From positions 29,016,001 through 29,080,000 of the forward strand of contig CM060732.1 of the NCBI GenBank assembly GCA_030704615.1: DNA of 64,000 bases. Direction: 5' to 3'. The notes beneath the pieces are model-generated. The model did not search any database. It had not been told where the DNA came from and worked only from the letters and a program-made list of their open reading frames with translations. Position 1 is the first letter of the stretch; every line of letters starts with the position of its first letter. The position numbers and the translations under genes were made by a program. The DNA is from Takakia lepidozioides. Lineage: Eukaryota > Plantae > Bryophyta. Shown here in pieces: positions 15,163 through 63,038 of this stretch.

Positions 15163-15164
15163 GT

Positions 15165-15531: not shown

Positions 15532-15616
15532 TGTGGCATAGCTTTCTAGGATTGTGTGCTTAGAATGTATGGTGGACAGCGATGTATGTTGTGGCACGAT
15601 GCTTAGGTGCACGACA
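15532..15616 (+). repeat. Second copy of the 85-bp LTR
   Basis: Near-identical to 15078-15162, with TG...CA ends. No PBS or matching TSD seen. Confidence 0.8.
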
Positions 15617-24703: not shown

Positions 24704-25291
24704 CAACTAGTGATCAAGTTATGGTGGCCTCATGAGCTCTGAATTTTCTTAAGGGGTTGTGGTCTAGCCCCGAACGGATCTGCACTTGTTGTTCACGTTT
24801 TCGGATGTTCAGGTACTCAGATGGGCCTATCTCCTTGCCAATTGCTCCAATTGTGGTGTGCTATGGCTTGAAACATTTCTTACAACTAGTGTGATCAAGT
24901 TATGGTGGCCTCATGAGCTCTGAATTTTCTTAAGGGGTTGTGGTCTGGCCCCGAACGGATCTGCACTTGTTGTTCACGTTTTCGGACGTTCAGATACTCA
25001 GATGGGCCTATCTCCTTGCCAATTGCTCCAATTGTGGTGTGCTATGGCTTGGAACGTTTCTTACAACTAGTGTGATCAAGTTATGGTGGCCTCATGAGCT
25101 CTGAATTTTCTCAAGGGGTTGTGGTCTGGCCCCGAACGGATCTGCACTTGTTGTTCACGTTTTCGGACGTTCAGGTACTCAGATGGGCCTATCTCCTTGC
25201 CAATTGCTCCAATTGTGGTGTGCTATGGCTTGGAACATTTCTTACAACTAGTGCGATCAAGTTATGGTGGCCTCATGAGCTCTGAATTTTC
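24704..25291. repeat. 181-bp near-identical tandem repeat, ~3.2 copies
   Basis: CAACTAGTG...GATCAAGTTATGGTGGCCTCATGAGCTCTGAATTTTCT recurs at ~24704, 24883, 25064 and 25245. Confidence 0.95.
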
Positions 25292-27358: not shown

Positions 27359-28832
27359 TTGTACTCATAAGACGTTGTTTGCCGTAGCCTTGTGGCCATT
27401 GACCCCGCGCCCAGTTTGAGCGGGAACAAAAGGGACAGAACCTACCTCTGTCAGGGGCTGACGTTGGTAGTAAGACTTACCTCCATATAAAGAATTAATC
27501 CGGGTTTTCCAGATATCCTCTAGAAATCCCTTCACACAAGCATCAATCTGCTGTGTGTGATTTGCCCAAAAATTAGGCCTCAGGAGGGCCTGGGCTTTTC
27601 ACTCAGCCTCGAGACTTTCAAAGTTGGTAAACAGGGGTACAGGCACAATTCCCTTGATAGATTTGAAGAGAGCGTCTCTTTGGTGAGAGAACCCCGGACA
27701 GTCTATCAGAAAATGAATACTGTCTTCAGATTGCCCACACAACGGGCAATTGCACTCTCCCTTTCCTCTCTGCTTCTGTTTGCTGTTCAAAGGTAGGCTT
27801 CCTGCCCTGAGTTTAAATTTCAGTCTAGTGCCGAGAGTGGGTAGACCCTTGAGGTCATCCAAGATGTCCTCCCCAATGTCACAGACTGGAAACAAGTTCA
27901 GGGAAGTTTTCTGCCTAACTTCATTTTCATCAGACAATCTCATGGCAACAGACATAGCTGAGGACACTACAGCCTCTAAGTCAGATTTATCCAGCAGGGT
28001 CAAGACTTGCGGATCCAGGTCCAGGTCCTTGAGGATCTCTTCTACTCTCTTCTGCCAGGACTTAGCCTGTCTGACAGGGCGGTCCTGTTTCCAAGATATA
28101 GAGTCGATTAACTTAGGATATCTGGTGTTGGGCATATGTTGCAGCTGACCCCACCATCTGACCTTGAATTCATCTCGTCGGGAGCTTAAGGACGGAATGC
28201 CAAACTCACCCCGAACAGCCACATTGGCTGTTTTGGAGCATGCTGACATACACTCCTTAAGCACCCCCACTTGAATGGATTCTAGAGACTTAGCCTGGTT
28301 GGAGTTATCAACCCATATAGCAGATCCGTACTCCAAGGCAGGTCTAATAACGCGACAAAGCATGGTTTTCTTAACCTCAGAGTTGACCCCTCTGCAGTGG
28401 AAAAATTTAGTGAGCCCCAGAGCTTTGCCCTTGCCAGTTTGAACAACTTTCCAGATATGTGCATCCCAATTACAATTGGAGGAGAACTCAACGCCCAGGT
28501 AAGTGTAGGAAGGGAGGACCGGGATCTCTTGGCTACCCCACTGCCACTTAAGATCACTTCCTCCCTCTCCTCTGTCGTTGAATGCTACCACTGCACATTT
28601 GCTGACATTAGCCTCTAGCCCCCAAAGATCAAAGTATCTCTTTGCGCAATCAATCAATTCCTGGAGATTGGTTGGAGTCTCCCCTATGCCTGCGAAGTCA
28701 TCCGCAAACATAAGGGCTGGTATGGTGGTATCACCCACACTTAACCCAAATCCCTCACTTTCCACATCCTCGAGGAGTTGATTGATGAAAACATTGAAGA
28801 GCAGAGGGGAGAGAGTACATCCTTGAGCTACA
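27359..28832 (-). mobile_element. 5'-truncated non-LTR retrotransposon (LINE) with 17-bp TSD
   Basis: RT motifs QGCTLSPLLFN, FADD and YLG; C-terminal CPLC...H...C. TSD CCAGGACCCACCAAAGA at 27342-27358 and 28833-28849. Confidence 0.93.
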
Positions 28833-29161
28833 CCAGGACCCACCAAAGAGATAGCCTCCTTCTCATTTGGGGAGAAAATGTGGCCTGCAGAAACCAACCC
28901 CCTGTGACAGAGTTTAATCACTTTGGATTCAGTGTTATGATGGTGATCTGGTATGCCCAAGTTCTAACCACTGTAATAAAATATCATGTTCCAAGTTTCT
29001 GTATCTGTCCTTCCTCCTCTGTTTTCAAGGTCACTTACTTTCCCTCTCTGTCTCTCTCAACGGTTGCAGAACATGAGGTGAGAGTTAAATCTGTACTGAA
29101 GCTCAGATCGTGTCACGATGTCTTTTGTGCAGGGAAACAGGCTGGGAGTTAAGCTAACGAC

Positions 29162-30571: not shown

Positions 30572-31630
30572 TGTCATGGTTAACTAGAATTACCTACTTC
30601 TAGTTAATTAGGACATTTTGGATATTTATATTTGTATTTTGTGTGTTGGGACTTCATGGGGTCTCATATGCCAAGTGAGGTGTCAAACCTCACTTGGGAC
30701 ATGGGGATGTGTTTTCCCCTTGTGAGGGTTGAGGAGGGCTCATCTTGTTGTAGTTGAGCCTCCATGAGCCTCTCTCACCACCATAGCTCTAGGTATTGAG
30801 AGGGAATGTGTTGAGGGCTTTGTAGGGTGGATTCATTTAGCAAAGGTGCCCTTGGCTTGACTTAGTTTATGTGATAGAGTGGATTTCACTTGGAAGGACT
30901 AGGTTCATTTCACTAGCAATCTAGGGTTAAGCAAGTTCAAAGTGTGGATGTTGTGGAGGAGAAGCCAAGGAGCTACATAGGCTTGGAACAAGTACAAGCA
31001 CTTGGAGAGCACTAAGAAGCTCAAGAGGTTTTGAAAGGGAGCATGTGAAGAAATCTTCCAATCATGGTGGTGTGGAGCCAAGCTCAGGGCATTGGAAGGG
31101 CTTGGAGAACATATGGTGGGAAACCCTTGAAGGGAGATCATCATTCAATGTATGCATAGCTTCACCCTAACTATGTAATGTGACAAGAAGGGGAGACAAT
31201 ACTTGGCTATTCATGCTCTTGGTAGTGTGAGTTTTGTGGTGGATAGTTGACCAAGCAAGTGGTGCATATGTGGAGCATGCTCTCTTGAGTTTACAAGTTC
31301 AAGTTTGAGAATGGGAGCTCTTGGACTAGCAAGAGGTGAAGGCCTTGATCCATTTGTGTGTAAAGTGGAGAGGTGTTGATTCATGTTACAATGAAGGAGA
31401 ACAACACATAGGCCAAGTGGGTCATGGAACATGCATTCAAATGACCAAGGGGAGCACATAGATGATGGATTGATGCAAGACCCCAAAGGAGGCATATGGC
31501 GTGAGAGTGGGATCCAAGGCGGATTGCTTGGGAGCATTATTGTAAGTGACAAGCATTGCTCCTACACATTGAGATAATTTGTGTTGATTTGGAGCAATTG
31601 TCAAGTGATGAGGAGACAAATGCATGATTA
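30572..31630 (+). mobile_element. Partial long LTR (TGTCATGG family)
   Basis: Strong match to 15165-15480 and to the reverse complement of 15.8-16.4 kb. Confidence 0.7.
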
Positions 31631-35906: not shown

Positions 35907-37619
35907 TGAAAAGGATCTGACTCTCTTTCCTCAGTCCAACTACAGAACAAATTCAGGCCCTTTGCTTATCTTGCCGTTCATAGGGAATCTATCATGATCC
36001 CAAGAAATCTGCTTGCTTGAATCAACGTCAATATGGACTCATGTGACCATCTTCTTTTATTCCAGTCACCGTTCATTGACTCAGACCGTAACAGAGACCA
36101 CACCAGTCCAACGATCGTTCACCCCTGTTCTTCACGGAAGTGTATTCACAAGCCTTAAGCAGATCTTTCTTGTCCCAAACAGTAACTAGAATCAAATCTG
36201 CATTGTCACTCTTCAAATCAACACCTGATGAAGCCTAAGTCATAGGATTTACACTTTTTCTCTATACAAAGGAGAAATCACAGTCCTTGCCGCTGCAAGG
36301 CACCAAAGTCCAGTGACAACTATTCCAACATCAACCTACACTCTAAAAGCACAACACCGGCTACAACATCCGGTCCACCCAGCCACCATGCCATGCTACA
36401 CACAGATTTTCTGTCGATGCAGATCTGCTCTAGACGCCTGTACGCCGTCATCCTTTCTTCAACCCTCTTGCCATCTCCAAGCACCCCTCAAAAATCCCTA
36501 GTCCTGGATCTCTTCATGCACGCGAGCCTGCTCCATTTTACCTGCTGTCAGTTCGGCGATATTCTAGCAGTCTCTTGTTATTCCAAACTGGTTGACAGGT
36601 TGATCTTCGTTCTTGGCACCTAACAAATTCCCCCTCCCAAAGACAAGTCATTGTCCTCAATGAGGGGTAACTCAATGTCAATTCATTTTCCTTCTCCCAA
36701 GTAGCTTCTGTCTCTGGGTAATGCAACCACTTAATCAAATGTTCTTTCCAAGAACGGTTGCGCAGGTGCTTCACTCGCGTTTCTAGAATCTTTTCGGGTT
36801 CAGCCATCAGCTGACCATCATTCATGGCTTGAGGCAACGTCGGCAAGATGTGTGATGGGTCTGACATATACCTCCGGAGAAGGCTGACATGGAAAGTTTT
36901 ATGGATCTTCCATGTTGGAGGCAGATCCAACTCATAGGCCACTATGCCATGGCATTCCAGGATTTTAAACGGGCCACAAAACCTTGGTGACAACTTATAA
37001 CACTTGCCCAGTGTTAGATTGCTTCTTTTAGGTGTAACTTTCAAAAACACCATATCACCAATGGCAAATTCACGAAAAGTCCTGTGCTTATCAGCAAAGA
37101 ACTCGGCCCGTTCTTGTGCAGCCTGCATACTACGCTTCACCAGATCTAGGACAGAGTGGATCTCTTTGATTTTGTCATTCACACTCTGCACATTTGATGG
37201 TGGTGTAATAAGCGAAGCAGGAGCCAAGCAATCTCGTCCATATAAAGCTTCAAATGGGCTCATGCCAATGGCACTGTGGAAATGCTTGTTATAAGCAAAT
37301 TCCACCATATACATTGTTCCCAAGGAGGACTGTCTTTCACCAACGTACATCCTCAACATATCTTCTATTGTACGGTTGGTCCTTTCTGTTTGAGCATCTA
37401 TTTCTGGGTGAAATGTCGTACTCAGTTTCACCTTGGTTCCCAATTTCTTGAACAAGTCAATCCAAAAATGACTTGTAAACTTTGAGTCCCTGTCACAAAT
37501 AATCTCCCGAGGCAGACCATGGATCCTGAATATCTCTTTCATGTACAAGGATGCATTCTAGCATTCTCTTGTTATTCCAAACTGGTTGACAGGTCGATCT
37601 TCGTTCCTGGCACCTAACA
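35907..37619 (-). mobile_element. Chromovirus (Ty3/gypsy) deletion derivative: 5' LTR stub, integrase C-terminus, chromodomain, PPT, 3' LTR
   Basis: Integrase core end (CDRD..FTS.FW, QTERTNR), GPF motif and chromodomain (PEKIL...HLIKWLHYPETEATWE). PPT GGGAGGGGGAAT. 3' LTR 36625-35907 (TGTTAG...TTCA); 5' LTR stub 37619-~37555. TSD TGCTT at 35902-35906 and 37620-37624. Confidence 0.9.
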
Positions 37620-42061: not shown

Positions 42062-42534
42062 TTCTCTTAGTTTGTGGTGTCTGGATTGTTGGCTGTATGT
42101 AGGCATTAAAAGTAATGGTAGTTGATGGTTCTTAGGGTGGAAGCAGGTGGGTGAAGTATTCATCAACATCAGTGGTGACTGCAGGGCTCTTTATATCCAT
42201 CTGCTGCATTGCTATCTTTGTCTGGTGTGTACATATTAATTGCTAGCAAATAGGAAATGGGAACAATTGCTCAGGATTTCGTTTGAAGTTTGCAAACCAA
42301 CTCAAGTGCTGCCATAGGCAGTCTCAGTCTTTGGTTTAGACTGTTGACTATTGCTTCTATCTATGCAACAAGATGATCAGTTGTGGTTATTTTATGGTTT
42401 TACCATCTGCAGGATGATAATACAGTACACATGGGGTACTTACATACGAAAGCGATACATGCTGCACTATCAAGGAAATCAGTGCGGGGACTATGCTGGC
42501 CTCCCTTTCGATTGGTCTCTGGCCCCTGATCAGC

Positions 42535-43434
42535 GTTATTAGACCTGCCTTGGAGTACGGATCTGCAATATGGGTTGATAACTCCAACCAGGCTAAGTCT
42601 CTAGAATCCATTCAAGTGGGGGTGCTTAAGGAGTGTATGTCAGCATGCTCCAAAACAGCCAATGTGGCTGTTCGGGGTGAGTTTGGCATTCCGTCCTTAA
42701 GCTCCCGACGAGATGAATTCAAGGTCAGATGGTGGGGTCAGCTGCAACATATGCCCAACACCAGATATCCTAAGTTAATCGACTCTATATCTTGGAAACA
42801 GGACCGCCCTGTCAAACAGGCTAAGTCCTGGAAGAAGAGAGTAGAAGAGATCCTCAAGGACCTGGACCTGGTCCGCAAGTCTTGACCCTGCTGGATAAAT
42901 CTGACTTAGAGGCTGTAGTGTCCAAAGCCATGTCTGTTGCCATGAGATTGTCTGATGACAATGAAGTTAGGCAGAAAACTTCCCTGAACTTGTTTCCAGT
43001 CAGTGACATGGGGGAGGACATCTTGGATGACCTCAAGGGTCTACCCACTCTCGGCACTAGACTGAAATTTAAACTCAGGGCAGGAAGCCTACCTTTGAAC
43101 AGCAAACAGAAGCAGAGAGGAAAGGGAGAGTGCAACTGCCCGTTGTGTGGGCAATCTGAAGACAGTATTCATTTTCTGATAGACTGTCCGGGGTTCTCTC
43201 ACCAAAGAGACGCTCTCTTCAAATCTATCAAGGGAATTGTGCCTGTACCCCTGTTTACCAACTTTGAAAGTCTCGAGGCTGAGCGAAAAGCCCAGGCCCT
43301 CCTGAGGCCTAGTTTTTGGGCAAATCACATACAGCAGATTGATGCTTGTGTGAAGGGACCCTTTTGTTCCCACTCAAACTGGGCACGGGGTCAATGGCCA
43401 CAAGGCTACGGCAAACAACGTCTTATGAGTACAA
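42535..43434 (+). mobile_element. 5'-truncated LINE copy with 17-bp TSD
   Basis: Near-identical to 27.4-28.35 kb. TSD TCTGGCCCCTGATCAGC at 42518-42534 and 43435-43451. Confidence 0.93.
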
Positions 43435-43810
43435 TCTGGCCCCTGATCAGCAAACCCAAATGCGCGCCTCTCATTGACAAAAGAGCAGGCTGGATTTAGC
43501 TCACCCTGGCTTTGGAAGGCGACACATGCTGCCCTATCAAGGAAATCAGTGTGGGGACTATGCTGGCCTCCCTTTCGATTGGTCTCTGGCCCCTGATCAG
43601 CAAACCCAAATGCGCGCCTCTCATTGACAAAAGAGCAGGCTGGATTTAGTTCACCCTGGCTTGGAAAGCGACACATGCTGCACTATCAAGGAACTCAGTG
43701 CGGGGACTATGCTGGCCTCCCTTGCGATTCTGGCCCCTGATCAAAAAACCCAAATGCGCGCCTCTCATTGACAGAACAGCAGGCTGGATTTCGCTCACCC
43801 TGGCTTTGTC
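43435..43810 (+). repeat. ~150-bp tandem repeat derived from the ORAI terminal exon
   Basis: CATGCTGC(A/C)CTATCAAGGAA(A/C)TCAGTG...CCTCCCTT...TCTGGCCCCTGATCA repeats about 2.5 times and also occurs at 42458-42534. Confidence 0.85.
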
Positions 43811-46870: not shown

Positions 46871-49800
46871 AGCCTTGTCTGGTGCATTTGCAGTACACTC
46901 CCTGCGCTCCACCACAGACCCCTTCATGAGAGAGGTGAGCAATTTGAACAGTAGAGAGTTGGTATTAACTTGCTAATCAAGCAGGACCCACTCAAGAGAA
47001 CCAGTAGCAGTTGCTCTGCCAAGATGTCCAGAACACTGCATTGAAATTGTTGTGTTCAAGAAGTTCAAAGCAAATGAGGACTTTTGGGAAGCTTTTGTGT
47101 TGGATTTCATGGCTGGAGAGTAGAGGGAGAGGGAGAACAACAGAAACTGGTGTGATCATAAGAAGGTTTACACAGGATTCTTCTGCTTGCAGGAGGGTAG
47201 GATCCGGTCATCGTGGGTCCGTTTGGTCTACACAACATTGGCTGAGGTAAACCTCTTCATCTTTATTGATATCAGTGGTATGTATGATTTTATGAAGTAT
47301 TCTTTTCATCATTGTAATGGGGGACTGTTTATCATTAGTCTTGAGTTGAGACGTGGGGGTTTCTGACCCACTCAAATCAACTTAAGTGGCCTGATAGTCG
47401 AGATAACTAACAAGGTCTGTTATGGCACCCCCGGAAGGTTGAAGACATGAGTCGGACAACTGACCAAGCCAGCATCTTGGGAGAGAACAAGGAGCAGCCT
47501 GATCCTTCAGACCTATTTGTGAAACAGGTATGCACATAGAGGAGCTTACTCATATAAGGCGCACTGGGTTGCAATCTCCTCTGGCCATGTAACTAACAAA
47601 AAAGTAGGGGGTGGGAATATTACGGAGATAGCATCAAAGGAGCCTATCACTATGGAGTCAGACACCGGGATGTTTGGTGTGAAAGTCATCATCAATCTCA
47701 GGGCTTGGTTTTTGGTTTGAGGAAATGCTTTGTTGGGCTCTAAGCCAGCTCGGAATTCTGACCAATTTACACACAGAAGTGCATTACGGGTTCTAGACCT
47801 TTTTTGTTTCAGAATTATCATGTGACAATGAGCTTGACCTTTGTATGGTTAAAGTCCAGCATTTATTAGCAATCAGAATGCACATATGGGTGATGAGTTT
47901 GCGTGGTACCCTGTGTTAGGTGATAAAGATGGCACAAGAGGGGTTGGATCTTGAACAAGTCAGGTTGGAGCAGGTACAGTCTTTAGCACTCATTTCATAT
48001 AATCAGGTTGATCACTACAGTGGAGTAGCGAGAGTAAGAAGTAGAGTTCTGGGTCCAGGTCTCCAGGAAACCCTTAATCAAGCGTCTGAGCAGGATTTCT
48101 AAAGTTCCTGCATAATTTAGACCCAGGAAGCCCACAGATAACAGCATCGAAGGAAAGTCTTTTGGATTGAGAATCGAAAAGCCCTCTTCTCAGGAGGCCA
48201 ACTGCTTTACTGTATTATGAAGTGGTACTCAGTTAGTCATGACATAAGCATGACATTGATTCCAGGAATACTTGCTGGAGCCCTCGTTCCTTGCCAGAGA
48301 TGTGAAACTGGGATGTGATTGCACTCCTGATTGAAAGTTTAGACAGCCAGAAAAAGATCTGACTTTATGGTTGTCAACCTGCAGATCAAATCAGGACCCA
48401 CAACCTCAGGATCAGTGAAGGCCATGAGACAATGCCACTACTTGATTCTTTTAACGTACGGGAAGGCACTGGAGAGACGGCAATCTTGATTCCAGTGTCA
48501 TGTACAACACTACCTGATAGCTTGGTGTTCTGCTATTCATGTGCAGAACATGTTGTAACATGAGGACATGAGTACATGTTTTGTCCACGAAACATGAAAA
48601 TGCAGGTGCTGGTGGATGACATGCAGTAGATTGCACTGCAGGGTTGTGTGTGATTCCCAGAGGCTGTTGTCACAAAGACTTTCTCAAGTAGTCTCAGGTA
48701 TGGAGACTGTCGTACCATGAATCCCTCCAAAAAGCTGTGATAAGGAACTGGAGCAAATATCAGCGTAGCATTTTAAGCCAGCCCGTAACCATCTCTGTGT
48801 CTGTTTGGAAGCTTGTCAGTGTGTTATTGTCCAGAACTCTCACATCTAGTGTTCTTGCCAAGTTTCCCTGATAAACCTCCCATCCAGAAAATAGGAACAA
48901 TGCAACCGACATTCAAGTTTGGTGGTGCCAACAAGGCAGAAAATTTGGAAACCAGAGAATGTTAGGTGCAAATTTTTTGTCTATTCTACAATTTGGCAGA
49001 TGTCGCTACCTGCATCAAGATGTGAGTTCGAGTATATTCTTCCAGTTTTCATTCTGATATCTATATGGTGGCTCAAGATTCCCAATTTATCAAACTTGTA
49101 AGGCACTTGGTTTAGTCCTTAGTGCATTTTGGTTTCATGTTAATGCATGCATTGCTTTTCTTGGAATATTCTGTCCTCTATCCTTTCCGAATTCCAACTA
49201 CCTGAGCCTCCTCAACCCATTCCCCACACCTAGAGTGGGGCTCATCATCTCACTTGACACATGGGACCAAATAAAGTCCCAATACTTCAAAAATACAAAA
49301 ATGTGAATATAGGAGATAAATCAATATAATATTTTTACTTGGCCCACCCCTGAAAAGAACAGTAACAGTAAGGCGTAGTGGCTCCTAGTTACGTTGGCCC
49401 CGGCCGGAGTATTTTCTTTCTCTCTCTCTCTCTCTAATTTGTTACTAACCATGCATAAACACATGAGAGTCATTTCTTTTATTGGAGAAGGATCTTTACC
49501 TCTGGAAATAGTCCTTAAGAAATAATCCTTAACCCTTAAGCGATGAGAGCTGTTTTCGCTTTAGCTTGTTGGTAAGGTAATTGCAATGTAGGCGGCAGAT
49601 TCTGGGTTTGATTCTTGATGGGAGACTATGGTAGTGGGACCCGGATACGGGTACCCCAATTGGTGTAATCCTCTTGCAGTGTAGCCCAGGTACTGGTATC
49701 CCAATCGGTGTAACCCTATGTAACCCCAGTCTCTCATGTAACTCTTCCTAGTCCATTTTATACTTAGTCAAATTTGGGCTGAGTCAAATTTCGAGATGAA

Positions 49801-50369: not shown

Positions 50370-50454
50370 TGTCGTGCGCATACATATCGCTACACAACTA
50401 CATCGCTGTCCAAACCACACCATACATATATGCACAATAAAGTAGTCTGCCACA
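50370..50454 (-). repeat. 85-bp 3' LTR of the DNMT/PHD gypsy
   Basis: PPT AGGGGGCGAT is followed by TGTGGCAG...GCGCACGACA, homologous to 15078-15162. Confidence 0.75.
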
Positions 50455-50714
50455 ATCGCCCCCTAGCTGGTGGGATAGGTCCCTCTACCTCCAGATAGCT
50501 ACAAGATGTAATAGCCACAGCCGTACTAAGTCCTCTATCACTGTCCCTATTGTACTCAAACTCTATAGACCAAGAGGCCGGGTACAAGAGTAGCCCCATC
50601 GTTAGTCGCCATCTTGCAATCTGTGAACTTGAGCCAGGACCTCGTGTGTTCAAGGTCTCCTAGTAGCTGGGCCTTGCGTTGCTTGTTAGTCTCCCATGGT
50701 TGTATCCACTCCCA

Positions 50715-50870
50715 CTATCCAATGCATTGTGGACATAACCAATCCCCATCTGGAACCATCTCAAGAGGTGGAGTCAAGCACCCCATATGCCAACCTCTAG
50801 AGCATCGATCACACACCAGCATGGTGGCTGCCCCTTTAGCAGACCCACACAACATGCACCTCAAACCTGC
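50715..50870 (-). CDS. PHD finger at the integrase C-terminus
   Basis: CMLC...MLVCDRCSRGWHMGCLTPPL..VPDGDWLCPQC gives the C4-H-C3 pattern. Confidence 0.92.
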   Translation of the reverse strand, partial: AGLRCMLCGSAKGAATMLVCDRCSRGWHMGCLTPPLEMVPDGDWLCPQCIG

Positions 50871-52338
50871 AGATACCACTGCCAGGTTTGGGTCAATCCT
50901 GCCATCGACATTCGGAAGGTGACATGGCGCACAATTACGCACATGGTCCTTCCAAGTGATGCCATCCCGACCCTCCAAGACCAAGACGCCTGAGGGCAAG
51001 ACCTCTCGAACCCTCAAATAACACGTCCTGCAGTCACATCCAGGGTCGTAGGAGCAGTCTGCTGCAGATAGACATAGTCACCAGGGTTGAATCTCCGAAC
51101 CCCAGGACGATAGCCCCCACCACGTATGGTAGCATACCTCAACGTATCACGGTGTTGTGCAATGGCAAGGTTCTCGAAAGCCATAGGCATGACTCTCTTG
51201 AACAACTCTGCACGCTGCTCACATGCACGTGCCCCACACGTCCGGATCGTCAAGGTTAAGAACTGTAGCATAGCAGCTTCTCTGCGAATGGATGTAGGCA
51301 AATCCGGCTCTCGGCCAAGAGAAGAAAGTATGGTGAGAAGAGGCAAGTGATGCTTGCTTGCTGAACCTGTAGCCCATGGCTAACCAGGGTAACTGAAGGT
51401 CCCAATCTCCTAGGTGTCCCTTCTGCAAGCCATACTTGCGCAAACCCCTCTTCACTGTCTGAACAACTCTCTCTGCCAAGCCATCAGGCTTCAGGATGAT
51501 CCCGAGAAGTGGTGCGGTGGTCTATCAAGGCCTTGTCACACAAAGCCTGAAACTCCCCCAAGAACTCTCTCCCTTGGTCCGTGAGTACCTCAGCTGGAGC
51601 ACCGAATCGGCTAAGCACACAATCCAGGAATGCATACGCAGCTCCCTCACTAGCCTTATCAGGCAATGGAACCAATTCAATCCACTTGGAGAAGTGCTCC
51701 ACCATCACCAACACGTACTTGTTGTGGCGCATGGTCAGTGGCAACGGCCCTGCGAAGTCAAGACTCCACCTGTAGCCCAATCCCATGATCGGAAGAGGGT
51801 GCAATTGTGGAGTAGGGGCGTTGAATGAAGCACGCACCCTGTCACACACCATGCACCTAGCCACAAATTGTTGCACCTCTGTGTGCATACCACGCCACCA
51901 ATACTGCCCCTGCAGTAGACTATGAGTGCGTCGCACCCCAAAATGCCCCAACTCCTCATGGGCATGCCGCACTAACCGTGCCCGCTGTGTTGGGTGAGGC
52001 ACAATCCTCACTCGACCATCCTCCCACACTCGGAGCAGGTGTGTCCCCTCCCACCTGAACCTCTTGGCTCGTTGTAGGATCCGATCCCTCTCCTTGGCAG
52101 TCATAGTGGCTGCCGTGTCTCCACTGCGGAGGTAGTCCAACACAACTGAATCCTCATGTATATCTTTGGCGCCACCCTGCTCATTGCTGGCCTCAGGGTC
52201 CTCAGACACTTGATCTACAGTCATCCCTGTTGTAGGTCCAACCTGGCCTTCCGCTGCCAAGATACACAGAAATGCAGATGCATGCCATCCGGGCACCATC
52301 TCCTCGTCCGTCTCACCATGCCCGAGCTCCAGTGTCAT
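50870..52338 (-). CDS. Integrase (frameshifted)
   Basis: HHCC motif H..LGHFG...CMVCDR, plus WSLDFAGP, LTDQGREF and AERVVQTVK. Confidence 0.92.
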
Positions 52339-53720
52339 CCTGCTGGCTCGTGCATGGATTGCGACTCAACCCATCTGCATTTCGATTGACCAAACCCGGT
52401 CGATGCACCACCTGAAAGTCATACTCTTGAAGGATGAGTGCCCACCGTGCAAGCTTCCCCGTAAGCTTGTCTGACTCCATCAACCACTTGAGTGGTTGGT
52501 GATCCGTGACAAGGGTGAAGAGATTGCCGTATAGATAGCACCTGAAGTGTGCCACGGCCCACACTGCAGCTAAGCATTCTCCCTCATATGAGCTATACTT
52601 AGACTCTGCAGCATTGTTCGAGCGACTAGCATAAGCCACTACGAACTCTCTTCCCTCATCATCCACCTGTGTGAGCACCGCTCCAAGCCCCAGCATGCTC
52701 CAATCTGTATGCAGCTGAAAAGGACGCCCCCTGATAGGTCGTCTCAAGATAGGCGCCGAGGTCAACCTCGCCTTGAGCTCTTGAAAAGCTTGTTCTTGCT
52801 CATCTTCCCACTGCCACTCCTGGTCCACCTTGGTCAGCTTGGTTAGAGCCTTTGCAATGGCACTAAATCCCTTAACAAACCGTCTGTAATAGTTTGCTAA
52901 CCCCATGAAAGCTCGAACTCGGCTCACATCCGTGGGGTGGAACCTGTGCAATGGACTCTACCTTAGTCTGCTGTACCCCCAATCCTCCAGGATATATCAT
53001 GTGACCCAGGTACTCAATCTGGTTGTGGAAAAACTTGCACTTGCCCGGATGTAACTTCAATCCGTGCGTCCTCAAGCGCTCAAATACCCCTGAAGGTGTC
53101 TCTCATGCTCCTCCACCGTAGCACTAAAGATGATGATGTCATCTATGTAGCACCGAGCAAACTCCACCCCTGCTAGAATCCTGTCCATGACTCTTTGAAA
53201 CTCAGCGGGAGCGTTTTTAAGCCCAAATGGTAAGAATCGCCACTGGTATAGGCAATCCTTCCGTGCTCATTGATCCCCCAGAATGCCGTCTTTTGCTTAT
53301 CCGCCTCCTTGATCGGCAACTGGTGATATCCGGATCGTAAATCCAACGTGCTAAAGACCTTGGAATGCCCAATGGCATCAAAGATCTCCTCTGGTGTTGG
53401 CATGGCATACCTATCGGACTTGGTCTGACGATTTACAGGCCGGTAATCACCGCACATACGTCTCTCCGTCCAATTGCCATAGACATCCTTCTTAGCTGGC
53501 ATCACTGTGGCTGAAGCATACTCTCCACCAGAGAGCTCCACCAAACCTGCCTCCCAGAGATCTTGAGTCCTCATCTGAATCAAAGACCTCTCCATGTCAC
53601 TGTATCTATAGGGTCTCCGAAAGATTGGCGTGTCAGTGGCCAACTCAATACGGATCTCTTGACCCTTCAGTGCTCCCAAGTCCTTCAAACTGAAGGCAAA
53701 GCAATTCCTGTAAGCCCTCA
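52313..53720 (-). CDS. Reverse transcriptase and RNase H (frameshifted)
   Basis: RMCGDYR, LDLRSGYHQ, YIDD near 53140, LHTDWS and YASRS...YEGECLA...TDHQPL. Confidence 0.93.
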
Positions 53721-54149
53721 GGAACCGCCGTATACGTCGTCTCTCTCCTCCGGTGACAATGGGTCCAATATCAGGCTCCCAATTGTCCTCCGTAACTGCA
53801 ACCTTAAGTCCAGTGGGCTTAGAGGTAGAGGACGCGTCCCGTGGTTGCTATGCTGCAACCTCTTGAGCAGTACCCCTTCCTGCTCAGTCAATGACAAGGC
53901 CTCATCCTGCCCCATCATCTCATCATTGAGAACCTCCTCATCCCGAGAAGAATCCCCAACCTCATCCATCACAGCTGCCTTCGCTGCCAACTCCCTCTGA
54001 ACCTCGAGCACCTCCCACATGTGCCATGGATGTCTACACCTCGTGGTCCTCACCGGCTCGCCCCCACTCGCTGCCTGTACCGTCTCGGTAGGCAGAGAGA
54101 CCATCAAGGGAAGTGCACTCCGCACTCTACGTTGCTCAGCCATAGCCAA

Positions 54150-55100
54150 GCTGACAATCCAGGTCAAGCAATTGAGATCCATTGCTTGCCCCAACACCTG
54201 ACGACGTGATGCTTCAGAAAGAGAAGGCACCGCCGTGGTCCCAGTGGAAAACCCCATAGCCCGCTCTCGCTCGTCGGCATTAGGCTCCACTAACTGCTGC
54301 AACTGAGCATCCCACAGGAGGCCAGGTCCACCATCCCGAAAAGCATGGGATCCTGGGAAGCTGAGCAGTGTAGGTAATGCTGCTCGTGGTTGACCCACCC
54401 TATTGACCACTGCCAAAGGCGAACGGTCATCGTGTCTCACACGTTGAGACTGCCTTCCTGTGTCCAAAATGCCATCCACGGTGAGGTGTGCTGGCCGCTG
54501 CACCCCATCAAATGCACGCTTGAGCAGTGCGGGTGGCATCAAGTTAGTCCACCATAGTCGTGGACGATGAGCCCGTGACCCCACTGCAGCTGCATCCAGC
54601 AACACTGCTGACCCAAGCCACGACCGGACTTGATGCACACTGGCCATCACCCTGGCCCGAGAATCACCATCAGTGGTACATTCTCCAAGATGTATGCTGG
54701 AGATACAGCTTGATGAAGCTGCAAGCACGCAAAATCCGCACCATCTCCCAAAACAGACCCGTCCTCGAGTCTCGTAATCCATTGCCATGCCCGGCTGATG
54801 AATGCCCTTGGCAGGGCCAACCTGCCACTATCAGATCAATAGAGCCAACCTGCTCCAAATCTTGCGCCCCCAACAAGGAAATGTCTGCTGGCAAGGCTTG
54901 TTGGTATCCACGAACTGCAGACACAGGCAACAAGTCAGGGTACTGCTGTACCAACTGAGCCACATGGCGCAGTGAGACGCGTCGTGCAGTCTCATCCCTC
55001 TCCACATACAGGTAACGCCTTACCGCACACCTGCCTGTAGCACAGCAGCCAATCCGGTGCTGATCCCGCCAAACAAGTCCAGAAGGCAAATGCCTTCATC
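54150..55100 (-). CDS. DNMT3-like C5 cytosine methyltransferase domain within Pol (frameshifted)
   Basis: Motif I LDLFGGISTG; II YVERD; IV AGWPCQG (54808-54816); VI ILENVP (54677-54685); VIII AHRPRLWWTN; IX ERERAMGF; X RRQVLGQA. Confidence 0.88.
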
Positions 55101-55453
55101 CGGCCGCTGCCATACAAGAGGTGTGGTGTCCAATGGCGACAACTGAGGTGGCCCTGGTGCAATCACCGAACTCTCCTCCTCTCCTGACGGTACAAAAGCT
55201 TCTTCCCAAGCTTGTTGCACCCGTCCATCAGCAGCTTGCTGCAAATCTTTGCTCGTACCCCACAACGGGGTGTGAGCAACCATGGCAGGCAACTCCGCCG
55301 TACCATGCATGTCATCCTGCTCTGCTGGAGGTGGCACATCCTCTGCATGGACATTGCCTTCCAGCAACTCTCCAGGCCAACTAACGGCAGCTGTGAAGGC
55401 GGCTAGTGTTGGCATCTGGCCCCGCTGGGCAGCTGCAATACCCCCAATGAATG

Positions 55454-57852
55454 TCACAGGGAGCTGTGCACGGCGACCATCCCCTGACTGCCATCCAGGC
55501 CTGTAGGATGCTGACTCCTCCCAGAAATCCAGGGTGAAGCCCATGGGGTATAACACTGCCCACCAACGAGGACATCGTAAGAGACCGCGTCTGTCACAAT
55601 GGCCTTGGCTCGCATCACTGAGCCATCTACAGGATGATCCGGCTGCAGTCTAATAGCCAACTGATGTCGTGTCATGCCGCGAGCCTGCTCTGATCCTCCC
55701 AGAGATGTCTGTATCTGGAAAGGACAAGGCTCCATATCCGCCTCCATGAGGCCCAAACCTGCAATAGCAGCTCTGCCCAACATCAGTGGCTGAGCTCCTG
55801 AGTCCAACAAGACCCGCAGTGGCCGGTACTTCTTGCCTGCCGGTCCACTCAAAGTGAAAATGCCTCCCTGGTTGTCTAACAAGACAACTCCAGGTGTCAC
55901 CATGGCGCGCTCAATGGCTGGCCTAGCTGGCAGCTCCGTCAACCTAGTAGCTGCAGCTTGCCAGGGCGCTGCCGTGGCAGTCTTGACCCTCAAATCCGAG
56001 GATCCCTCTGCCACTACACCTTCCACTAACTCCGCAGAAGATGAAGTGACCTCCCACTCTCACAGAGTGTTGCTGCTAGTCTGAACACTGCAGCTGGTCT
56101 CACCCCCGGCGTCGCAATCATTGTTGCCGAGAACAGTGGGGCCTGACACACAGAGGTGGCTGCCCCCAATAACACACCGGCCGCACTAGCCTTGGCAGCA
56201 GGAGTCAATGCTGCACGTGTAGCTCTCCCCAATGGCATAGTAACCTCCGCCTCGGTAACAGTCGGGCGAGAACTAGGTGCCATGGATGGCGTTGACACAG
56301 TCTCCGCCAATGTGAATGACTGAGGAAGCCTTGCCTGACGGCTTGCCTCCCCACGCTGTGGATCCAATTCCACCTCTGCACCTCGTGGCTCAGGAACTCG
56401 TGCTGCTCCTCGAGTCACGGCTGCAGCAGACTCCACCTGCTCTAGTGGTAGTGCTGCTCCGCACATAAATCCCATGCCTCCCATATCTCCTCCCTCAGGA
56501 GCAGGAGGTGGACCATCCCGCCTGGGAGCCGGTACCGCCTGAGCTATAGCCATGGCAGCGAGCCTCTGCTCTAGCTGCTGAAGCCGGTTGGCCATGCCTT
56601 GATCAACGCCCTGACCTCCGCGTCCTTGGCCATGTTGAGCTTGCCCTTGGCCTGCACCTCGTGCCCGACCACCTCGTCCTCTCTGGGCTGGTCCACCTCG
56701 CCCCGGCCACCATTGTTCCCTTGGAACTGGCCCTGGGCGCAACTCAGGATGTAAGTCAACACTGGGCATCTCCATGCCATATTTGCCACAATGCCCACAC
56801 TGCAACTGTGCAGGCTGTGCTTGTGCCGGCCTTCTGCCACTCTCTGGGCAATTCTCTTTGACATGGGGTCCTCCACTGTCCAACATATCACCCCTGGTTG
56901 CTGTTGGCCTGCAAAAGATGCACGGGCCTTTGCACCTGAGGCCCCCTGTAAGCTCCATGGAACTTGGGCTGGGCAACCTGCCCCCCTGTCCCGCTGTTGG
57001 GCAGTCCCTTGTGCTTGTGGGCTGACAGCTGTGCCCCGTACAGGCATGTCCTTGCCAAATCCAATTGTAACAACTCGTTCCTCCACCATGTTGAGCTCAA
57101 TCCGCTCAGCCAGCAGAAACACATCTGCTAATGTGGGTTGGGCTGCTTGTAACAGGGTTGCATCTCGCACCCTTCTCTTGAGCTCCTTGTCCAGAATTCC
57201 ATACCAAACTGGATTGCCTGAGCTTCAGTAACCCCTTGGGTCACACTTATCAAGCGCCTCATACGAGTGTACGCCTCTCGCAGGCTCTCACTGGGTTTGC
57301 GCTGGAAGTCTTGCAAACTTCGTAGCTTCTCTGTCCGTACACCTTGGTAGTTCCTCCGCAACTCCTGGAAGAACTCCACCACCGGTTGAATCTAGGCACA
57401 TGTGTTGTAGCTGTGGCAGGAGGAGTAGTAGCACCTTCTGAACTGGTACCACCTGCAGAAGTACCAGCACTACCTGCTCCACTACTAGTGCTGGCAGTGG
57501 GAGCTATTGGTACTGATGCAGCTACTGGTCGCGTCATGCCTCGAGTAATGGAGATGTAGTCAGGTGACCAATACATCCTCCACTCCTCAATCTCTGCTTC
57601 ATGTCCTCGCCTGAACTCGTGGTAATCGTCCATAGGCGGGCCTTCCAAATGCTGGAACAGTCCCTTCCACGCCATGAATGGGGTGAATAGATGTGGATTG
57701 CGCATCTGCTGCAAATCACACCAGCTGTCGAACTCCTGGATAAAGTCATCCAACTCGATTGTGCCCACAGCTCCAGAGTACCTACGAGGCCCCTTGGTAG
57801 CTCCATACATCTCCTCCATGTCGTCCCACAACAATGGCGAATGAAAGTGCAC
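55454..57852 (-). CDS. Gag (capsid, Zn knuckles) and aspartic protease (frameshifted)
   Basis: RRYSG...LDDFIQEFD, LQDFQRKPSESLREAYTRM, CGHCGKYG and VLLDSGAQ...DVLVG. Confidence 0.85.
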
Positions 57853-58548
57853 ACCTGTGATGAAGCCTCCGAGCCTGTGTCTGACTCTACAGTAATTGAG
57901 GGGGGCGGTGAAGGTGGTCTGAACCGAATACCTCGTCTTGTGAACCCACTCTCACTGTTACTGCCTGTAGCCGTACTCCCCTCAAAACCCTTGGTAACTC
58001 CGTAATGACACTCACAATGTGCACCTCCTCCAGTGACACTATAAGGCTCTAGTACTAATCTAATAGTGACACGGGTGGGCACCTGTTGCAGTCTAAGGGT
58101 CATATCCCAATGGCTCAGGGCACCTGCACCTGCATCCACCGCAAGAACTCCTATGGTTGGCTGGTCATCAACCCAGCCTCACCATAGAAGAAACACTGGT
58201 GGTCTTGCTGGTCATCACTCCAGCCTCACCACCGACAGCATACTCTAGGATTGACCGGTGATCAAATCCGGCCTAATCCCTATGAAAGCAAGCGCCCACA
58301 CAAAACCAACATGGCGCACAGTCAAGCATGCAGGTGTTGGGGGGATCCAACACAAGAAATCAAAACATCAACACCCCCACACCAAAATCCAGCAGCAACG
58401 TTGATCCTGCAGAATATCCCAGCCCAAGACCCCGGACTGACTGGCCTCCACCAGAGAGGCTTTGGCAACTACAAGTACAAGGTAATGAAAATAGTACAGA
58501 GATGGAGGGGAAGAATAGAAGCCCGCCCCAGCAAGATCTAACCCTGAT

Positions 58549-59387
58549 CTATGCTATCAACTTCCAGACTTCTCTCAAAGTACCTCGCTCTGCTTGATGG
58601 TAAGGTGTAGGAGGTATATCTATGTCCAGAAACCTGCCACTAACCTTGTCCCAAGCTACAGTAGCTCGCTCTAACCAACCCTCCTCCTCTTTCTGCCAGG
58701 TAGAGACAAAGCAACACTCTGCTATCTCCCGCTCACTGAACACTAAAGAAAACAAAGGTAGGGTCTGATAGTCTCTCAACTCGAAAGCTTTGAGACGGTT
58801 GCGGGTGTCTTCATTGCGAATGACTGCATCGCCTTCAAACAGAACAAACTTGTCCTCGCTAATGAACCCCCGCTCGTGGTTGCCTTGTGCAGAGCGTGTC
58901 CGACTGCAACACTGTCTAATTGCACAAACTTGTGCAGCTCCTGCTCCTCTGCTCCAGTACACGGCACGGCCTTGTGGCTGAACACCTTGGTCCCCGGTGC
59001 TGTCTTTGGCTGTGTTCCAAGCCTAGCTTTCACCCACTTTGGTATTTCACCTACAGCTGCAGAACTGCTGGCTCCAACAGAGTTCTGACTGTCCAAGGCG
59101 ATATTGAGGCCCTCAATGCCAACTACAGCAGTCTGTTGTCTACTGCTAATGCCTGACTCCCAGTATGCAATCAACTCGTCCAACTGTTCTCCACTCAAAT
59201 CAGTCTGAGTTCCTTGGGAAACATAAATCCTGTCCCCTTGTGTGCACAGGCTAAGAGAAGAGACCTGCCCTTCAATTACGTCCTCATTTCCCCCAGCCAT
59301 GCAAGGAGTACATCCACAGGTTTGTCTCTCATATAGGCCAGCACAGGTTCTAGAAACATGATTGTGGATATTTCGTGGCACACTCAC
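58549..59387 (-). CDS. Unknown ORF0 upstream of gag (two overlapping frames)
   Basis: 203-aa and 137-aa overlapping ORFs co-oriented with gag-pol. No recognised motif. Confidence 0.45.
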
Positions 59388-59713
59388 ACTCTAAAAATTC
59401 CATAGATTTTTAGCAGAGTCCCAAAAAACAAACCAGGTCTAGATAGGTAGATTTCCCCTTTCTGCAGCTATCCCCTCAAAAACTGTGTCAAACAGAGTTC
59501 ATTTGACAAAGATATGACCAATTTGGCTTTACATCATTTAAATTAGATCAAAATGCCCTGTTTTTTTTTTTTGAAGGTTTTCAAATTTAAAAATTTAAAG
59601 TTACCCAAACTATCTGGTAACTGGTTCCCAGTTCCCTACGTTCTATATGGTTTCCCAGGTTCCCTGGCCACGTGCCCTATAATTCGCACCTTGCTCCAGT
59701 CTTCTGCATACCG

Positions 59714-59738
59714 AGAGTGAGAGAGAGAGAGAGAGAGG
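59714..59738. repeat. (GA)n microsatellite
   Basis: Direct GA run. Confidence 0.9.
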
Positions 59739-60125
59739 GAATTGTGGCACTCAGTAGTGTCTTGTTGTGAAAGAGAGTGGATTCCGTGATTGCTTGCAGG
59801 CTTGCGCACCAAGAGAGGGGAGGAAAGACATGTTTATGGACATGTTTATGGACGCCATGTACAGGCGAGGGGTCACTCACAGTCTGCTCGAGGCCTTGGT
59901 GGCTAACGATAAATCACTGAGGAGGATTACCAGCGGGAAGCACTGGACTTTGTGCTGGAGCTTGCGGGTCCCGGCCCATTCCAGTTACGGGGGAGAAAGC
60001 CCTGGCTCCTGAATCGCCCGTCTATCCCCAGCGTAGCTCGGCTCCGCCGTTCCCAAACCCGTCGTCTCCATCCTGCAGCTGAAACTCTAGCACTTTTGTG
60101 AATGTGAACTGCTTACTGCAGGGAA

Positions 60126-60870
60126 GTGGTGTATGGAGCATTCGAGTCCATAGATGCAACACCGCTTGATCAGGTCATCAACGATGCAATTGACTGGAGT
60201 TTCCGTAAGCAGAATCCAGAGGACTATTGGGCGGGCCAGGTCGAATCAAGCTGTACAATGGAAGCGGAGTGGATTCTGGCTATGCATTTCCTGGGCGTTA
60301 CAGATGACCCAAAGAAAGAAAAAGTCGTGCGTTGCATTCGGAGCCTGCAAAGAACTGACGGATCCTGGGACACTTATCATGAAGCTCCTGCAGGTGACCT
60401 TAGCACCACCGTCAAGTGTTATGTGGCCTTAAAAGCGTCAGGATCCCAACCCAATGAAGCATCCATGGTAGCAGCTCGAAAATGGATTTCTGAACATGGT
60501 GGACTTCAATCTTTACGACTTTAGCTGCTGGGCAAGGGAAACAGTCATCCCCCTGACCATCCTTTCTGCTCGGCGCCCAGTACGTCCGCTGCCGCTCGAC
60601 TTTTGTTGTCATGAGCTCCATGAACCAGAGGACATGAAACAACATCAAAGCAAGAAAACTACTCTTTCAAATCTCGCCAGACATGTCTGTGAAAGTTTAT
60701 TCCTCTACTTCGACAAGTTCCTCATATGGTATGGTAAGAGCCGTTCCAAGCCTGGCCGTGAGGTGGCCATCGTATGCTGCTTGGCCTGGATCCTTTGGTG
60801 ACAAGATTCTGACGGCACTTGTTGTGGTGTACAACCTCCTTGGGTGTACTCGTTGATGGCGTTGAGCTAT
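60126..60870 (+). pseudogene. shc: Squalene-hopene cyclase N-terminal remnant
   Basis: Q..EDYW, ESSCTMEAEWILAMHFLG, QRTDGSW..Y..AP.GDLSTTVKCY.ALK, FNLYDFSCWARETVIPLTIL and QDSDG..CGVQPPWVYSLMAL. Internal deletion/frameshift near 60505; the catalytic C-terminal half is absent. Confidence 0.88.
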
Positions 60871-62428
60871 ATATCGCCTGCTTACTGTAGGGAATCAGGC
60901 CAGAATACGTTCGTCGTTCGTTTCTGCTGAATTGGTCAGAAGACAATTCCAAGCCCGGAACCTAGGGCGCATACAATGCAGCAACCCCAAGAACGGAAAG
61001 CGCAAAGTTCTGCTGTTGCGAGGCTCCATAGCAACCATATACACGGAACTCCATCCTCTGCGCATTGCGAAGAGGATGCCGCTTTTCTGCTCCATAGCCC
61101 TGCCCCTTAACCGCTGCATGGCGCTCTTGCATGATCAAAGCAAATGATTGACAAAGAAGCTGAAGCTAAATTTTGGTCCAAGACCAACCCCGATACAAAA
61201 ATCAATTGCAACAGCAGGCTCCTCTATAGGCTTACTGGTGAAACGATCATCCAGCTTCAAGGATCATGCATAGGTGCCAACTAGCATTTGCTGCTGCATT
61301 TTTAAGTATCTCCTTGTGTACCCCAAAGCCTCTAGTGACTTGGTAGCTTCAGCGACTGCAATAACAATGGCGGCTCTGGCATCGTCATCCTCCAGGCGTT
61401 TCAGGGCACGCTGAATCTTGTGGTCACATTCAATGATATGCTTCTCAAACTAATCACTACTTATACGCAGGTAATCTTGCAAGTGCTAACCCTCAACTCC
61501 TACCTTGCACTCACAGGTAAGAGCTCATCTTTCTCGAGTGATAGAAATCCATCGAACACACTGTGACACAAAACATGAAAACCAAACCATCACTCTTAGA
61601 AAATAGTAGTCGAGCCAGGGGCACCCCAAGCTATGGGGACTCCACCCCACAACAACCTGTACCCCTACATACGCACACTCAAATCTAAACACATGCAGGA
61701 GCTCGGTCGCGCAGGCTCAACTCGAGAAAGATGAGCCGCGCGACTGCCGCTCTCGTGAAGATAAGACGGACCAGGTGTCAAACTAAACTTGACACCTGAT
61801 TTAACACTTGACCTAAATCCAAGTGTTAAATACAAATAACTAGTTTTATTCTAGCTGTTTTCACACTGTGCTTATTTAACTTGACAGTTAGGTACCTGCA
61901 ATGGAGGCAGGAGGTCAGTTTGACAGCATAGGCCGATTCTTATTTTTTATTTTATTTCTAATATAGCGTGCCTAAAATTTGCTAGCAGCAATTATAATTA
62001 ATATAGCCTGCAAGAAAATATAGCATTTTATAAATTTATGTAAATATAGGGTGGCCGATAAAGACCAAAATTAAAATAATACCCCCCTATAAAACATTTT
62101 TTTTGCACGTGGTATATAAAAGATATAGGGAGTGACCTCCTCGAGTAGGTGAGCCATCATCATGGCCCATAGACCTTAGGTTCGGTTCCCAAAAATTAGA
62201 CTCAATTATTTATTTTACGTGGAATATTATGCATTGGCCAATTAAAGGAGTAGTCGCCAACAACTACAACGATTGCGGGGAGTGGGAAACCGTTGCCGCA
62301 CCCATTTTCGGGCTCGTGCATAGAGACAACACAATAGAGAGGAGGCAAAGTGATGGCAACGTCTATTTAGGGCTACGTTTTTGTTTTGACAGCTCACATT
62401 CTCAACATTTTCTCTGTTTAGCTCATAC

Positions 62429-63038
62429 GATGGAAACAGCCCATCTTGACGCAGGTAACGGCAATCCTCTGGCGCAGGAAACTGAGGAAGGCTGGTTTAG
62501 CGGTCTCCGAATGATGAGGGGATAGCTACGGAGGAATGTACGACTGAAATAGGCGATTCGCATGATGTTAATGTTGAAGCAGCTGACATTCCTGCTGTGG
62601 AGGGCGACATGGGGGCAGGCCTGCCTCCCCTCAGCTGCTATATATCTCCAAATACGCCAAAGCGATCGCCGAGTGCATTGCATTTTCAAAATGTGGAGTG
62701 CCTTGGATTCGGAGTCGTCAGAAGACTCCTCCGACAATAAGGACCATGAGGAAGCTGGGAAGTACCCTGTAGATGCCTTTGAAGAATTGGAGGTTGATGA
62801 GCAAGACGACTTCCATTGGATCGGTGCTTCCATGGACTTCTTTCAGACTTCTGCTCCACAGTTTGTTTTGACGGCGAAAACAGACACATCGGACTCATGC
62901 ACTATCTGCCTAGAGTTGGCACAATCGGGAAACTCTATATGCACGCTCAGTGTATGCTTCCACTCCTTCCACAGTACATGCATAGACATCTGGGTTCAGC
63001 TGAACGGCACATGCCCTCTGTGCCGGCGTACATTGTGA
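62429..63038 (+). CDS. RING-H2 zinc-finger protein (E3 ligase-like), possibly pseudogene
   Basis: CTICLE...CFHSFHSTCID.W....TCPLC. The same frame has two TAG stops upstream (~62523, ~62550). Confidence 0.8.

Follow-up and report, generated by a model that had tools for sequence, protein, structure and literature searches.

Why retrotransposons capture DNA methyltransferases has been an open question since 2018, with examples in algae only. The closest described system is KnitGypsy-Dnmt3 of Klebsormidium nitens, in which, according to the main text of its report (PMC5890265), gypsy domains are combined with an intronless, non-permuted DNMT3-type domain, the repeats follow a DIRS-like A-coding-B-A-B order, and the methyltransferase is under purifying selection. 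Related designs are outlined in two preprints: EpiLTRs and DAM-LTRs are long terminal repeat (LTR) elements with a DNA methyltransferase and a chromatin reader (bioRxiv 10.64898/2026.05.21.726589), and Gypsy-7a_cRei and REM1 of Chlamydomonas are gypsy elements with a PHD, proposed to lower harmful insertions (bioRxiv 10.1101/2022.06.16.496473). Here, we analyzed 64,000 nucleotides of the Takakia lepidozioides genome (assembly GCA_030704615.1, contig CM060732.1, positions 29,016,001 to 29,080,000; the whole stretch is called the window hereafter), the minus strand of which carries a decayed Ty3/gypsy element with a DNMT3-like domain. The family to which it belongs keeps an in-frame stop, followed by a readthrough-type hexamer, between the methyltransferase and the reverse transcriptase (RT). 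Judged from sequence, a Gag-protease-DNMT protein is likely the main product, and the RT-integrase-PHD part likely needs readthrough.

Read along the minus strand from about 57,950 to 50,718, the domain order is Gag, zinc knuckle, protease, C5-methyltransferase, RT, RNase H, integrase and PHD. The features of the window copy are as follows.

50,370-59,505, minus strand: decayed Ty3/gypsy element with a DNMT3-like domain, with many stops and frame breaks (from the domain map)
59,487-59,505, minus strand: motif at the primer-binding-site position, resembling the sequence directly 3' of the 5' A repeat in relatives; inferred 5' limit of the window copy
57,069-57,950, minus strand: Gag capsid-like region, broken (tblastn with relatives)
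56,740-56,874, minus strand: zinc-knuckle region, broken (tblastn E 7e-8; CGHCG at 56,799)
55,446-55,894, minus strand: aspartyl protease (LLDSGA at 55,810-55,793; Pfam and tblastn)
54,126-55,094, minus strand: C5-cytosine methyltransferase, DNMT3-like, with breaks near 55,025, 54,725 and 54,670; motifs I-X in canonical order
53,851-54,125, minus strand: linker closing the first reading frame, with a frame break near 53,872, where copies vary in length
53,842-53,850, minus strand: in-frame stop and hexamer TAG CAA CCA, a CAR-YYA readthrough context, conserved across the family
52,989-53,781, minus strand: reverse transcriptase, broken (YIDD at 53,149)
52,358-52,741, minus strand: RNase H (Pfam and tblastn)
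50,900-52,165, minus strand: DDE integrase with H2C2 zinc finger, broken (Pfam, tblastn and motif positions)
50,718-50,870, minus strand: PHD finger, final domain of the second frame, with Gly at the cage-Trp position of H3K4me3 readers
50,457-50,467, minus strand: polypurine tract, at the equivalent position in relatives
50,370-50,456, minus strand: terminal B repeat with CA as its last bases, at which the window copy ends exactly on its 3' side

An earlier sequence-only reading of the same letters had called this a Ty3/gypsy element, and the Gag-PR-RT-RH-INT order together with the DDE integrase confirms it. Pfam matches in the open frames of the window include DNA_methylase (E 1.6e-11), PHD (1.2e-11), RT_RNaseH (3.8e-37), rve (1.3e-14) and Integrase_H2C2 (7.4e-17), with RVT_1 (3.3e-5) and aspartyl protease (0.005) under the curated cut-offs in these fragments. 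The Gag region gave no match in that scan; for the Gag-matching part of an intact relative, P0141, the nearest clusters are Retrotrans_gag (score 0.94). The Pfam scans gave no match to a tyrosine recombinase, the hallmark of DIRS and Ngaro elements, the rve integrase being present instead. Nor was the Chromo domain of chromoviruses matched by Pfam in the window, and the second frame closes right after the PHD both here and in the loci shown. The window copy itself is dead: its methyltransferase is split into four pieces in three different frames, and breaks also affect RT, integrase and Gag. As to its limits, a span of 50,370 to 59,680 had been given; the 3' end is exact at 50,370, but the recognizable 5' boundary lies near 59,505, where the 59,487-59,505 motif, found right after the A repeat in 9 of 80 loci, has its single occurrence between window positions 48,000 and 62,000. 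The contig cover of public sequencing runs rises about thousandfold over the element and collapses outside about 50,370-59,500. Over 80,000 contigs match the stretch in either of two runs from the same sample; the summed contig depth is not a copy number.

The same reading had placed the methyltransferase inside Pol, and this had to be revised. The domain ends a Gag-protease-DNMT frame, and a family-shared in-frame TAG (53,850-53,848) precedes the RT. An in-frame TAG or TAA followed by [C/T]AR-YY was found in 47 of 54 distinct copies, 16-27 codons upstream of the RT core; behind decay stops, taken as a control, CARYY follows in 10 of 1,150 cases. The hexamer type is TAG CAACCA in the window and in L013, an unbroken relative, and TAA CAATCA in three copies. 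The window hexamer is thus an exact instance of the tobacco mosaic virus-type signal, that is, UAG and CAR-YYA with the next frame in phase; CAR-YYA is described as the sole readthrough signal of that virus in the text of PMC2194720. The stop is retained in subfamilies with methyltransferases about 49-69% identical to that of the window, and the residues before it differ by subfamily (VAA, VFA, HFA, GIT) while the hexamer stays. Between 53,842 and 53,853 no variant at or above 3% was seen in any of four runs, one of them from another organism. At the protein level, 113 of 117 stored proteins (at least 48% identical and reaching the domain end; some are fragments) stop within 200 residues after the domain, many relatives ending 70-140 residues past it; of the four that go on, three are gene models from Marchantia or Sphagnum. 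For the named Marchantia, Calypogeia and Sphagnum copies, the evidence for the stop is confined to where their proteins end.

The methyltransferase is DNMT3-like by sequence and fold, non-permuted and with its catalytic residues present. A full set of C5-methyltransferase motifs had been listed for it, and on the minus strand they stand in the order given: DLFGG (55,079-55,065), VERD (55,005-54,994), GWPCQG (54,822-54,805), ILENV (54,691-54,677), HRPRLWWTN (54,569-54,543), ERERAMGF (54,272-54,249) and RQVLGQA (54,203-54,183). The profile match to DNA_methylase given above agrees with this, and the likeness to DNMT3 was upheld by sequence matches in the PDB and by the fold of an intact relative. 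Thus, with the L013 methyltransferase, which is 69% identical to the window domain, as query, the best 16 PDB rows are DNMT3A (best E 1.3e-11), followed by DNMT3B; the first non-DNMT3 row comes at 4e-5, and DRM-type and bacterial enzymes lie far behind. The structure predicted for the L013 domain (predicted local distance difference test score, pLDDT, 87.6) matches DNMT3 chains in all 32 rows listed, with a best E of 4.5e-19. The S-adenosylmethionine (SAM) loop, PCQ, ENV and the motif VIII-X residues are all retained in the clade of the window.

Relatives of the domain are numerous. Using its C-terminal half as query, we retrieved 72, the best being from Calypogeia fissa (79% identity), with many Marchantia proteins at 62-75% identity and three from Sphagnum; the occurrence in land plants thus extends to named species. 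A profile search of 1.84 billion representatives gave 595 clusters (50% identity) at E up to 1e-30. In 61 of 80 metagenome loci the RT directly follows the methyltransferase, and in the public runs with the stretch the depth over the methyltransferase equals that over the RT, and dozens of contig variants occur. A quick tree built from 83 domains puts the window domain in one group (support 96) with those of Calypogeia, Marchantia and Sphagnum and with three unnamed rows, which makes a bryophyte host likely; this tree has no host DNMT3 outgroup, its backbone is open, and 75 of 110 algal-type rows were omitted at random. The one named Klebsormidium protein found, P0108, shares 32% identity over 54% of the query and falls outside that group.

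The domain is under purifying selection. The catalytic Cys is present in 61 and the Glu of ENV in 62 of the 64 distinct copies covering them, so the catalytic motifs are kept family-wide. Between subfamilies, the non-synonymous divergence (pN) of the methyltransferase is 0.18-0.34 against a synonymous divergence (pS) of 0.68-0.75, which is saturated, and RT and integrase behave similarly. Within the decayed main subfamily the pN/pS ratio is 0.5-0.8, as dead copies would be expected to give.

Some further relatives differ in design. A separate algal-type group (stored proteins P0053-P0382) has the methyltransferase between RNase H and integrase, with a PHD. Its 35 tree rows all fall together (support 97), it makes up 85 of 134 new representatives, and by domain order it includes a Monoraphidium protein; ECQ replaces PCQ in 46 of 128 of these relatives. 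The Tetraselmis protein P0113 is a Copia-type polyprotein (RVT_2) with a weak DNA_methylase match (E 9e-4). P0164, a family member at 52% identity, appears in NCBI within a bacterial metagenome-assembled genome and is probably plant DNA that entered a bacterial bin.

On balance we lean towards a reading in which the Gag-protease-DNMT frame ends at a leaky, conserved stop and the methyltransferase is packed in bulk, likely to methylate the element's own new DNA. Most ribosomes would then yield a Gag-protease-methyltransferase of about 1,300 residues, as in P0007, P0141 and P0153, while a few would read through and extend the chain with RT, RNase H, integrase and PHD. Production of the methyltransferase would be one-to-one with that of the capsid and, if readthrough amounts to a few per cent, far above that of RT and integrase; for the murine leukemia virus (MuLV) gag-pol stop, readthrough is put at 5% in PMC2194720. 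Protease would free the methyltransferase, which would methylate the cDNA during its synthesis in the particle, so that new copies would arrive pre-methylated; the balance of the evidence tips slightly towards this sequence of release and in-particle methylation. The PHD would bias the landing sites of new copies.

Several observations weigh against this reading or parts of it. As regards the stop, the in-frame motif is absent in 7 of the 54 copies, where a deletion (one case), frame breaks or sense codons at the stop position account for the loss. In 37 of the 47 copies, those of the commonest subfamily, the hexamer reads CAA CCC and so deviates from CAR-YYA at one base. The invariant 12 bases are not significant alone, with 36 variable places in 301. 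No stable RNA structure was found 3' of the stop in any of the eight copies folded (z -0.3 to -1.4). Furthermore, three distant relatives (P0076, P0114 and P0061) have methyltransferase and RT in one frame, so the stop is not required for the design, and the distinct copies are not independent, most belonging to one subfamily. A real stop could instead be bypassed through splicing, re-initiation or an internal promoter, which would still leave the methyltransferase in the Gag-protease product. Re-initiation is possible in the commonest subfamily, given its in-frame ATG two codons past the stop, and two other subfamilies have an ATG four codons past it; in the window and in L013, however, the first in-frame Met comes 84 and 47 codons past the stop, in both cases inside the RT, which speaks against it. 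The Marchantia and Sphagnum gene models join methyltransferase to RT across the junction, but the five shown do so at five different places, as expected of predictor guesses. One contig, from a run that can only be guessed to be RNA, passes over the junction with no joint and was given no weight. Tca2, according to the text of PMC2194720, shows that bypass of a gag-pol stop does not have to rely on readthrough at a local signal; here, by contrast, the hexamer is constant while adjacent codons change. We therefore regard bypass without readthrough as unlikely, and bypass by readthrough as quite probable from the sequence context.

What the enzyme does is a second matter. The domain might be retained for nucleic-acid binding or particle structure and not for cDNA methylation. 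Amounts at capsid level would fit a chaperone or structural function, the element shows no self-methylation footprint in extra CG depletion (its CG observed/expected of 0.50 is level with the 0.51 of the remaining window), many algal-type relatives have ECQ and not PCQ, and the Klebsormidium domain was without activity in a yeast assay, which its authors call inconclusive in the main text (PMC5890265). A role in binding alone, however, would not require the SAM loop, PCQ, ENV and the motif VIII-X residues, all of which are kept, and the fold matches active DNMT3; we consider this role improbable. Alternatively, an active enzyme might act mainly in trans on genomic DNA (host chromatin, insertion sites or old copies) and thereby restrain the family's activity or shape the host methylome. 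Bulk production would leave much enzyme outside particles, the main text of de Mendoza et al. raises both host benefit and accidental host methylation (PMC5890265), and the host DNMT3 of moss carries out de novo CG and CHH methylation. Nevertheless, Pfam scans of P0007 and P0153 gave DNA_methylase only, with no targeting domain in the first frame, and the PHD lies beyond the stop, so that action in trans has, in our estimate, a small chance of being the main role. That a host methyltransferase gene, or a nested insertion, simply landed in the window copy might be thought of given that annotation lists those of the relatives that come from Marchantia and Sphagnum as either hypothetical proteins or DNA methyltransferases. 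This is refuted by the family data: the domain has the same position in the 61 loci noted above and is covered as deeply as the RT, and host DNMT3 of non-flowering plants has a methyltransferase followed by DUF3444, a domain absent from the P0007 and P0153 scans. We regard such an accident as next to impossible.

The claim that a PHD finger closes the integrase part was upheld by the Pfam match and by PDB matches, the top ones being CHD4, PHF12, KDM5A/B, ATXR5, DPF3 and PHF21A. A Trp two residues before the zinc-binding His is part of the H3K4me3 cage; of 84 family PHDs, 79 carry Gly at this position and a single one carries Trp. The PHDs of CHD4, KDM5, ATXR5 and PHF21A are ones that we take to read unmodified H3K4. 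As stated in the text of PMC8166343, H3K4me3 readers require an aromatic cage, and reading of H3K4me3 by the family PHD appears unlikely. It may rather bind H3 tails without K4 trimethylation and so steer insertions off active promoters, a suggestion that we hold to be evenly poised. The bryophyte-type PHD lacks the acidic residues found in algal-type PHDs, which makes histone binding itself unsure.

The termini of the family are unusual. Two identical full LTRs were not found; the termini are split, as A-coding-B or A-coding-B-NN-A-B. In relatives, A forms the 5' end, and what follows the purine tract is B by itself in 12 loci and B-NN-A in 8, as counted over 21 loci with a forward B match, and the B-NN-A loci show a second B where the contig reaches. 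The A-coding-B-A-B order of KnitGypsy-Dnmt3 therefore recurs in relatives, while the window copy finishes at B. A begins with TG, B finishes with CA, and two bases join them. Both terminal forms are flanked by 4-bp target duplications, exact at five of seven distinct sites and with three of four bases at the other two. The window copy's own 5' A repeat was not found in the window, where repeat searches gave no terminal repeat pair; other copies in the host runs extend past 50,370 with shared sequence. The A-type repeat at 61,886-61,539 was considered for the missing 5' end and left unassigned: although its flanks agree at three of four bases, the sequence after it is its own, and it does not match the continuation of host copies beyond B.

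Directly downstream of A lie bases complementary to a stretch located about 150-162 bases inside A, which suggests self-priming, a mode predicted for Tcn1 elements in the text of PMC6317226. Support is partial: in a position-restricted comparison the pairing beat shuffles in only 8 of 15 cases, and a duplex-energy test on entire repeats gave a weak result (2 of 7 cases). When the LTR is defined by primer site and purine tract, it is B-NN-A, and yet actual insertions start at A and finish at B; the inner CA-NN-TG site is thus the apparent substrate of the integrase, which hints at a circular intermediate. A symmetrical two-LTR circle predicts a mirror form, with B before the 5' A, which was seen in none of 16 loci, so the simple version of that model is incomplete. 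Self-primed reverse transcription combined with integration at the internal CA-NN-TG site is a tentative proposal that we place somewhat short of even.

Related termini occur elsewhere in the window. The stretch at 14,682-15,617 (plus strand) is the 3' end of a related element, with a PHD remnant, a purine tract and B-GT-A-B; its two 90-base B copies are 97% alike, it shares about 69% identity with the main element's 3' end, and it represents a second family with split termini in one host. Further A-type repeats lie at 20,685-21,047 (minus strand), 30,573-30,885 (plus), 49,246-49,302 (minus) and 61,539-61,886 (minus); the 16 bases that follow the last of them match the reverse complement of an inner stretch exactly, which self-priming would predict.

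Between the main element and this last repeat, at 59,687-60,800 (plus strand), lies a broken 5' fragment of a squalene-hopene cyclase gene (Pfam E 3.7e-37), possibly a piece of a host gene carried by a related element; in run X3 its contigs are ten to thirty times as deep as the contig at 48,500-49,520. The window also holds a chromodomain-bearing gypsy integrase remnant (36,538-37,557, minus strand), a remnant of a LINE-type RT (27,599-28,963, minus strand) with an inverted copy near 42,500-43,500, a SWIM-finger frame (585-2,024, plus strand) with an inverted relative near 7,000-8,700, a RING-finger fragment (62,553-63,038, plus strand) and diverged tandem arrays with a unit of about 180-193 bases (22,190-25,300).

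Taken in full, the lineage reading would have a leaky stop load active DNMT3 at capsid level in bryophyte elements, with self-methylated cDNA, tRNA-free priming, integration from a CA-NN-TG circle and a PHD-guided DDE integrase. This whole is doubtful; if true, it would be tractable in Marchantia, with its products annotated as host methyltransferases. The gypsy-DNMT3 design is now placed in liverworts and peat mosses, including a genetic model plant. The conserved stop predicts an enzyme at capsid level and not at polymerase level, and the split termini predict an unusual integration substrate. In addition, the current annotation of the bryophyte frames can inflate host DNMT counts.

We found no literature on bryophyte gypsy-DNMT3 elements, their stop or their target duplications, although subscription papers, figures and supplements may hold such; the text portions consulted of PMC12344493, PMC6317226, PMC6453930, PMC10952607, PMC9406493, PMC11982613 and bioRxiv 10.1101/2021.02.12.428880 contain neither a bryophyte gypsy-DNMT3 element nor the stop, and the text of the 2025 and 2026 papers speaks of 'streptophytes' with no land plants named. 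The pairing of writer and reader is less novel than the sequence-only reading held, given the PHD-bearing gypsy elements of Chlamydomonas and the writer-plus-reader elements of the 2026 preprint. The differences from these are nevertheless plain as far as their texts go: EpiLTRs and DAM-LTRs, from Cymbomonas and Euglena, have DAM and a DNMT4-related domain with a chromodomain, whereas the window family has a DNMT3-type domain with a PHD, and no methyltransferase is listed for either Gypsy-7a_cRei or REM1. Control of the balance between structural and enzymatic products by a single in-frame stop is known from the CAR-YYA of tobacco mosaic virus, MuLV gag-pol, SIRE1 and Tca2 (as covered in PMC2194720). 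Unlike in those systems, the stop of the window family follows the protease and a captured enzyme, which places that enzyme on the abundant side, and no 3' structure was found for it. The main text on KnitGypsy-Dnmt3 (PMC5890265) makes no mention of a PHD, target duplication or priming mode. There, the domain lies inside the Pol frame, whereas the window family has a conserved stop before the RT, a land-plant host and very many copies. As far as that text describes it, then, the element works like KnitGypsy-Dnmt3 and departs from it in one defining feature, the sharing of a single open frame between the methyltransferase and the RT.

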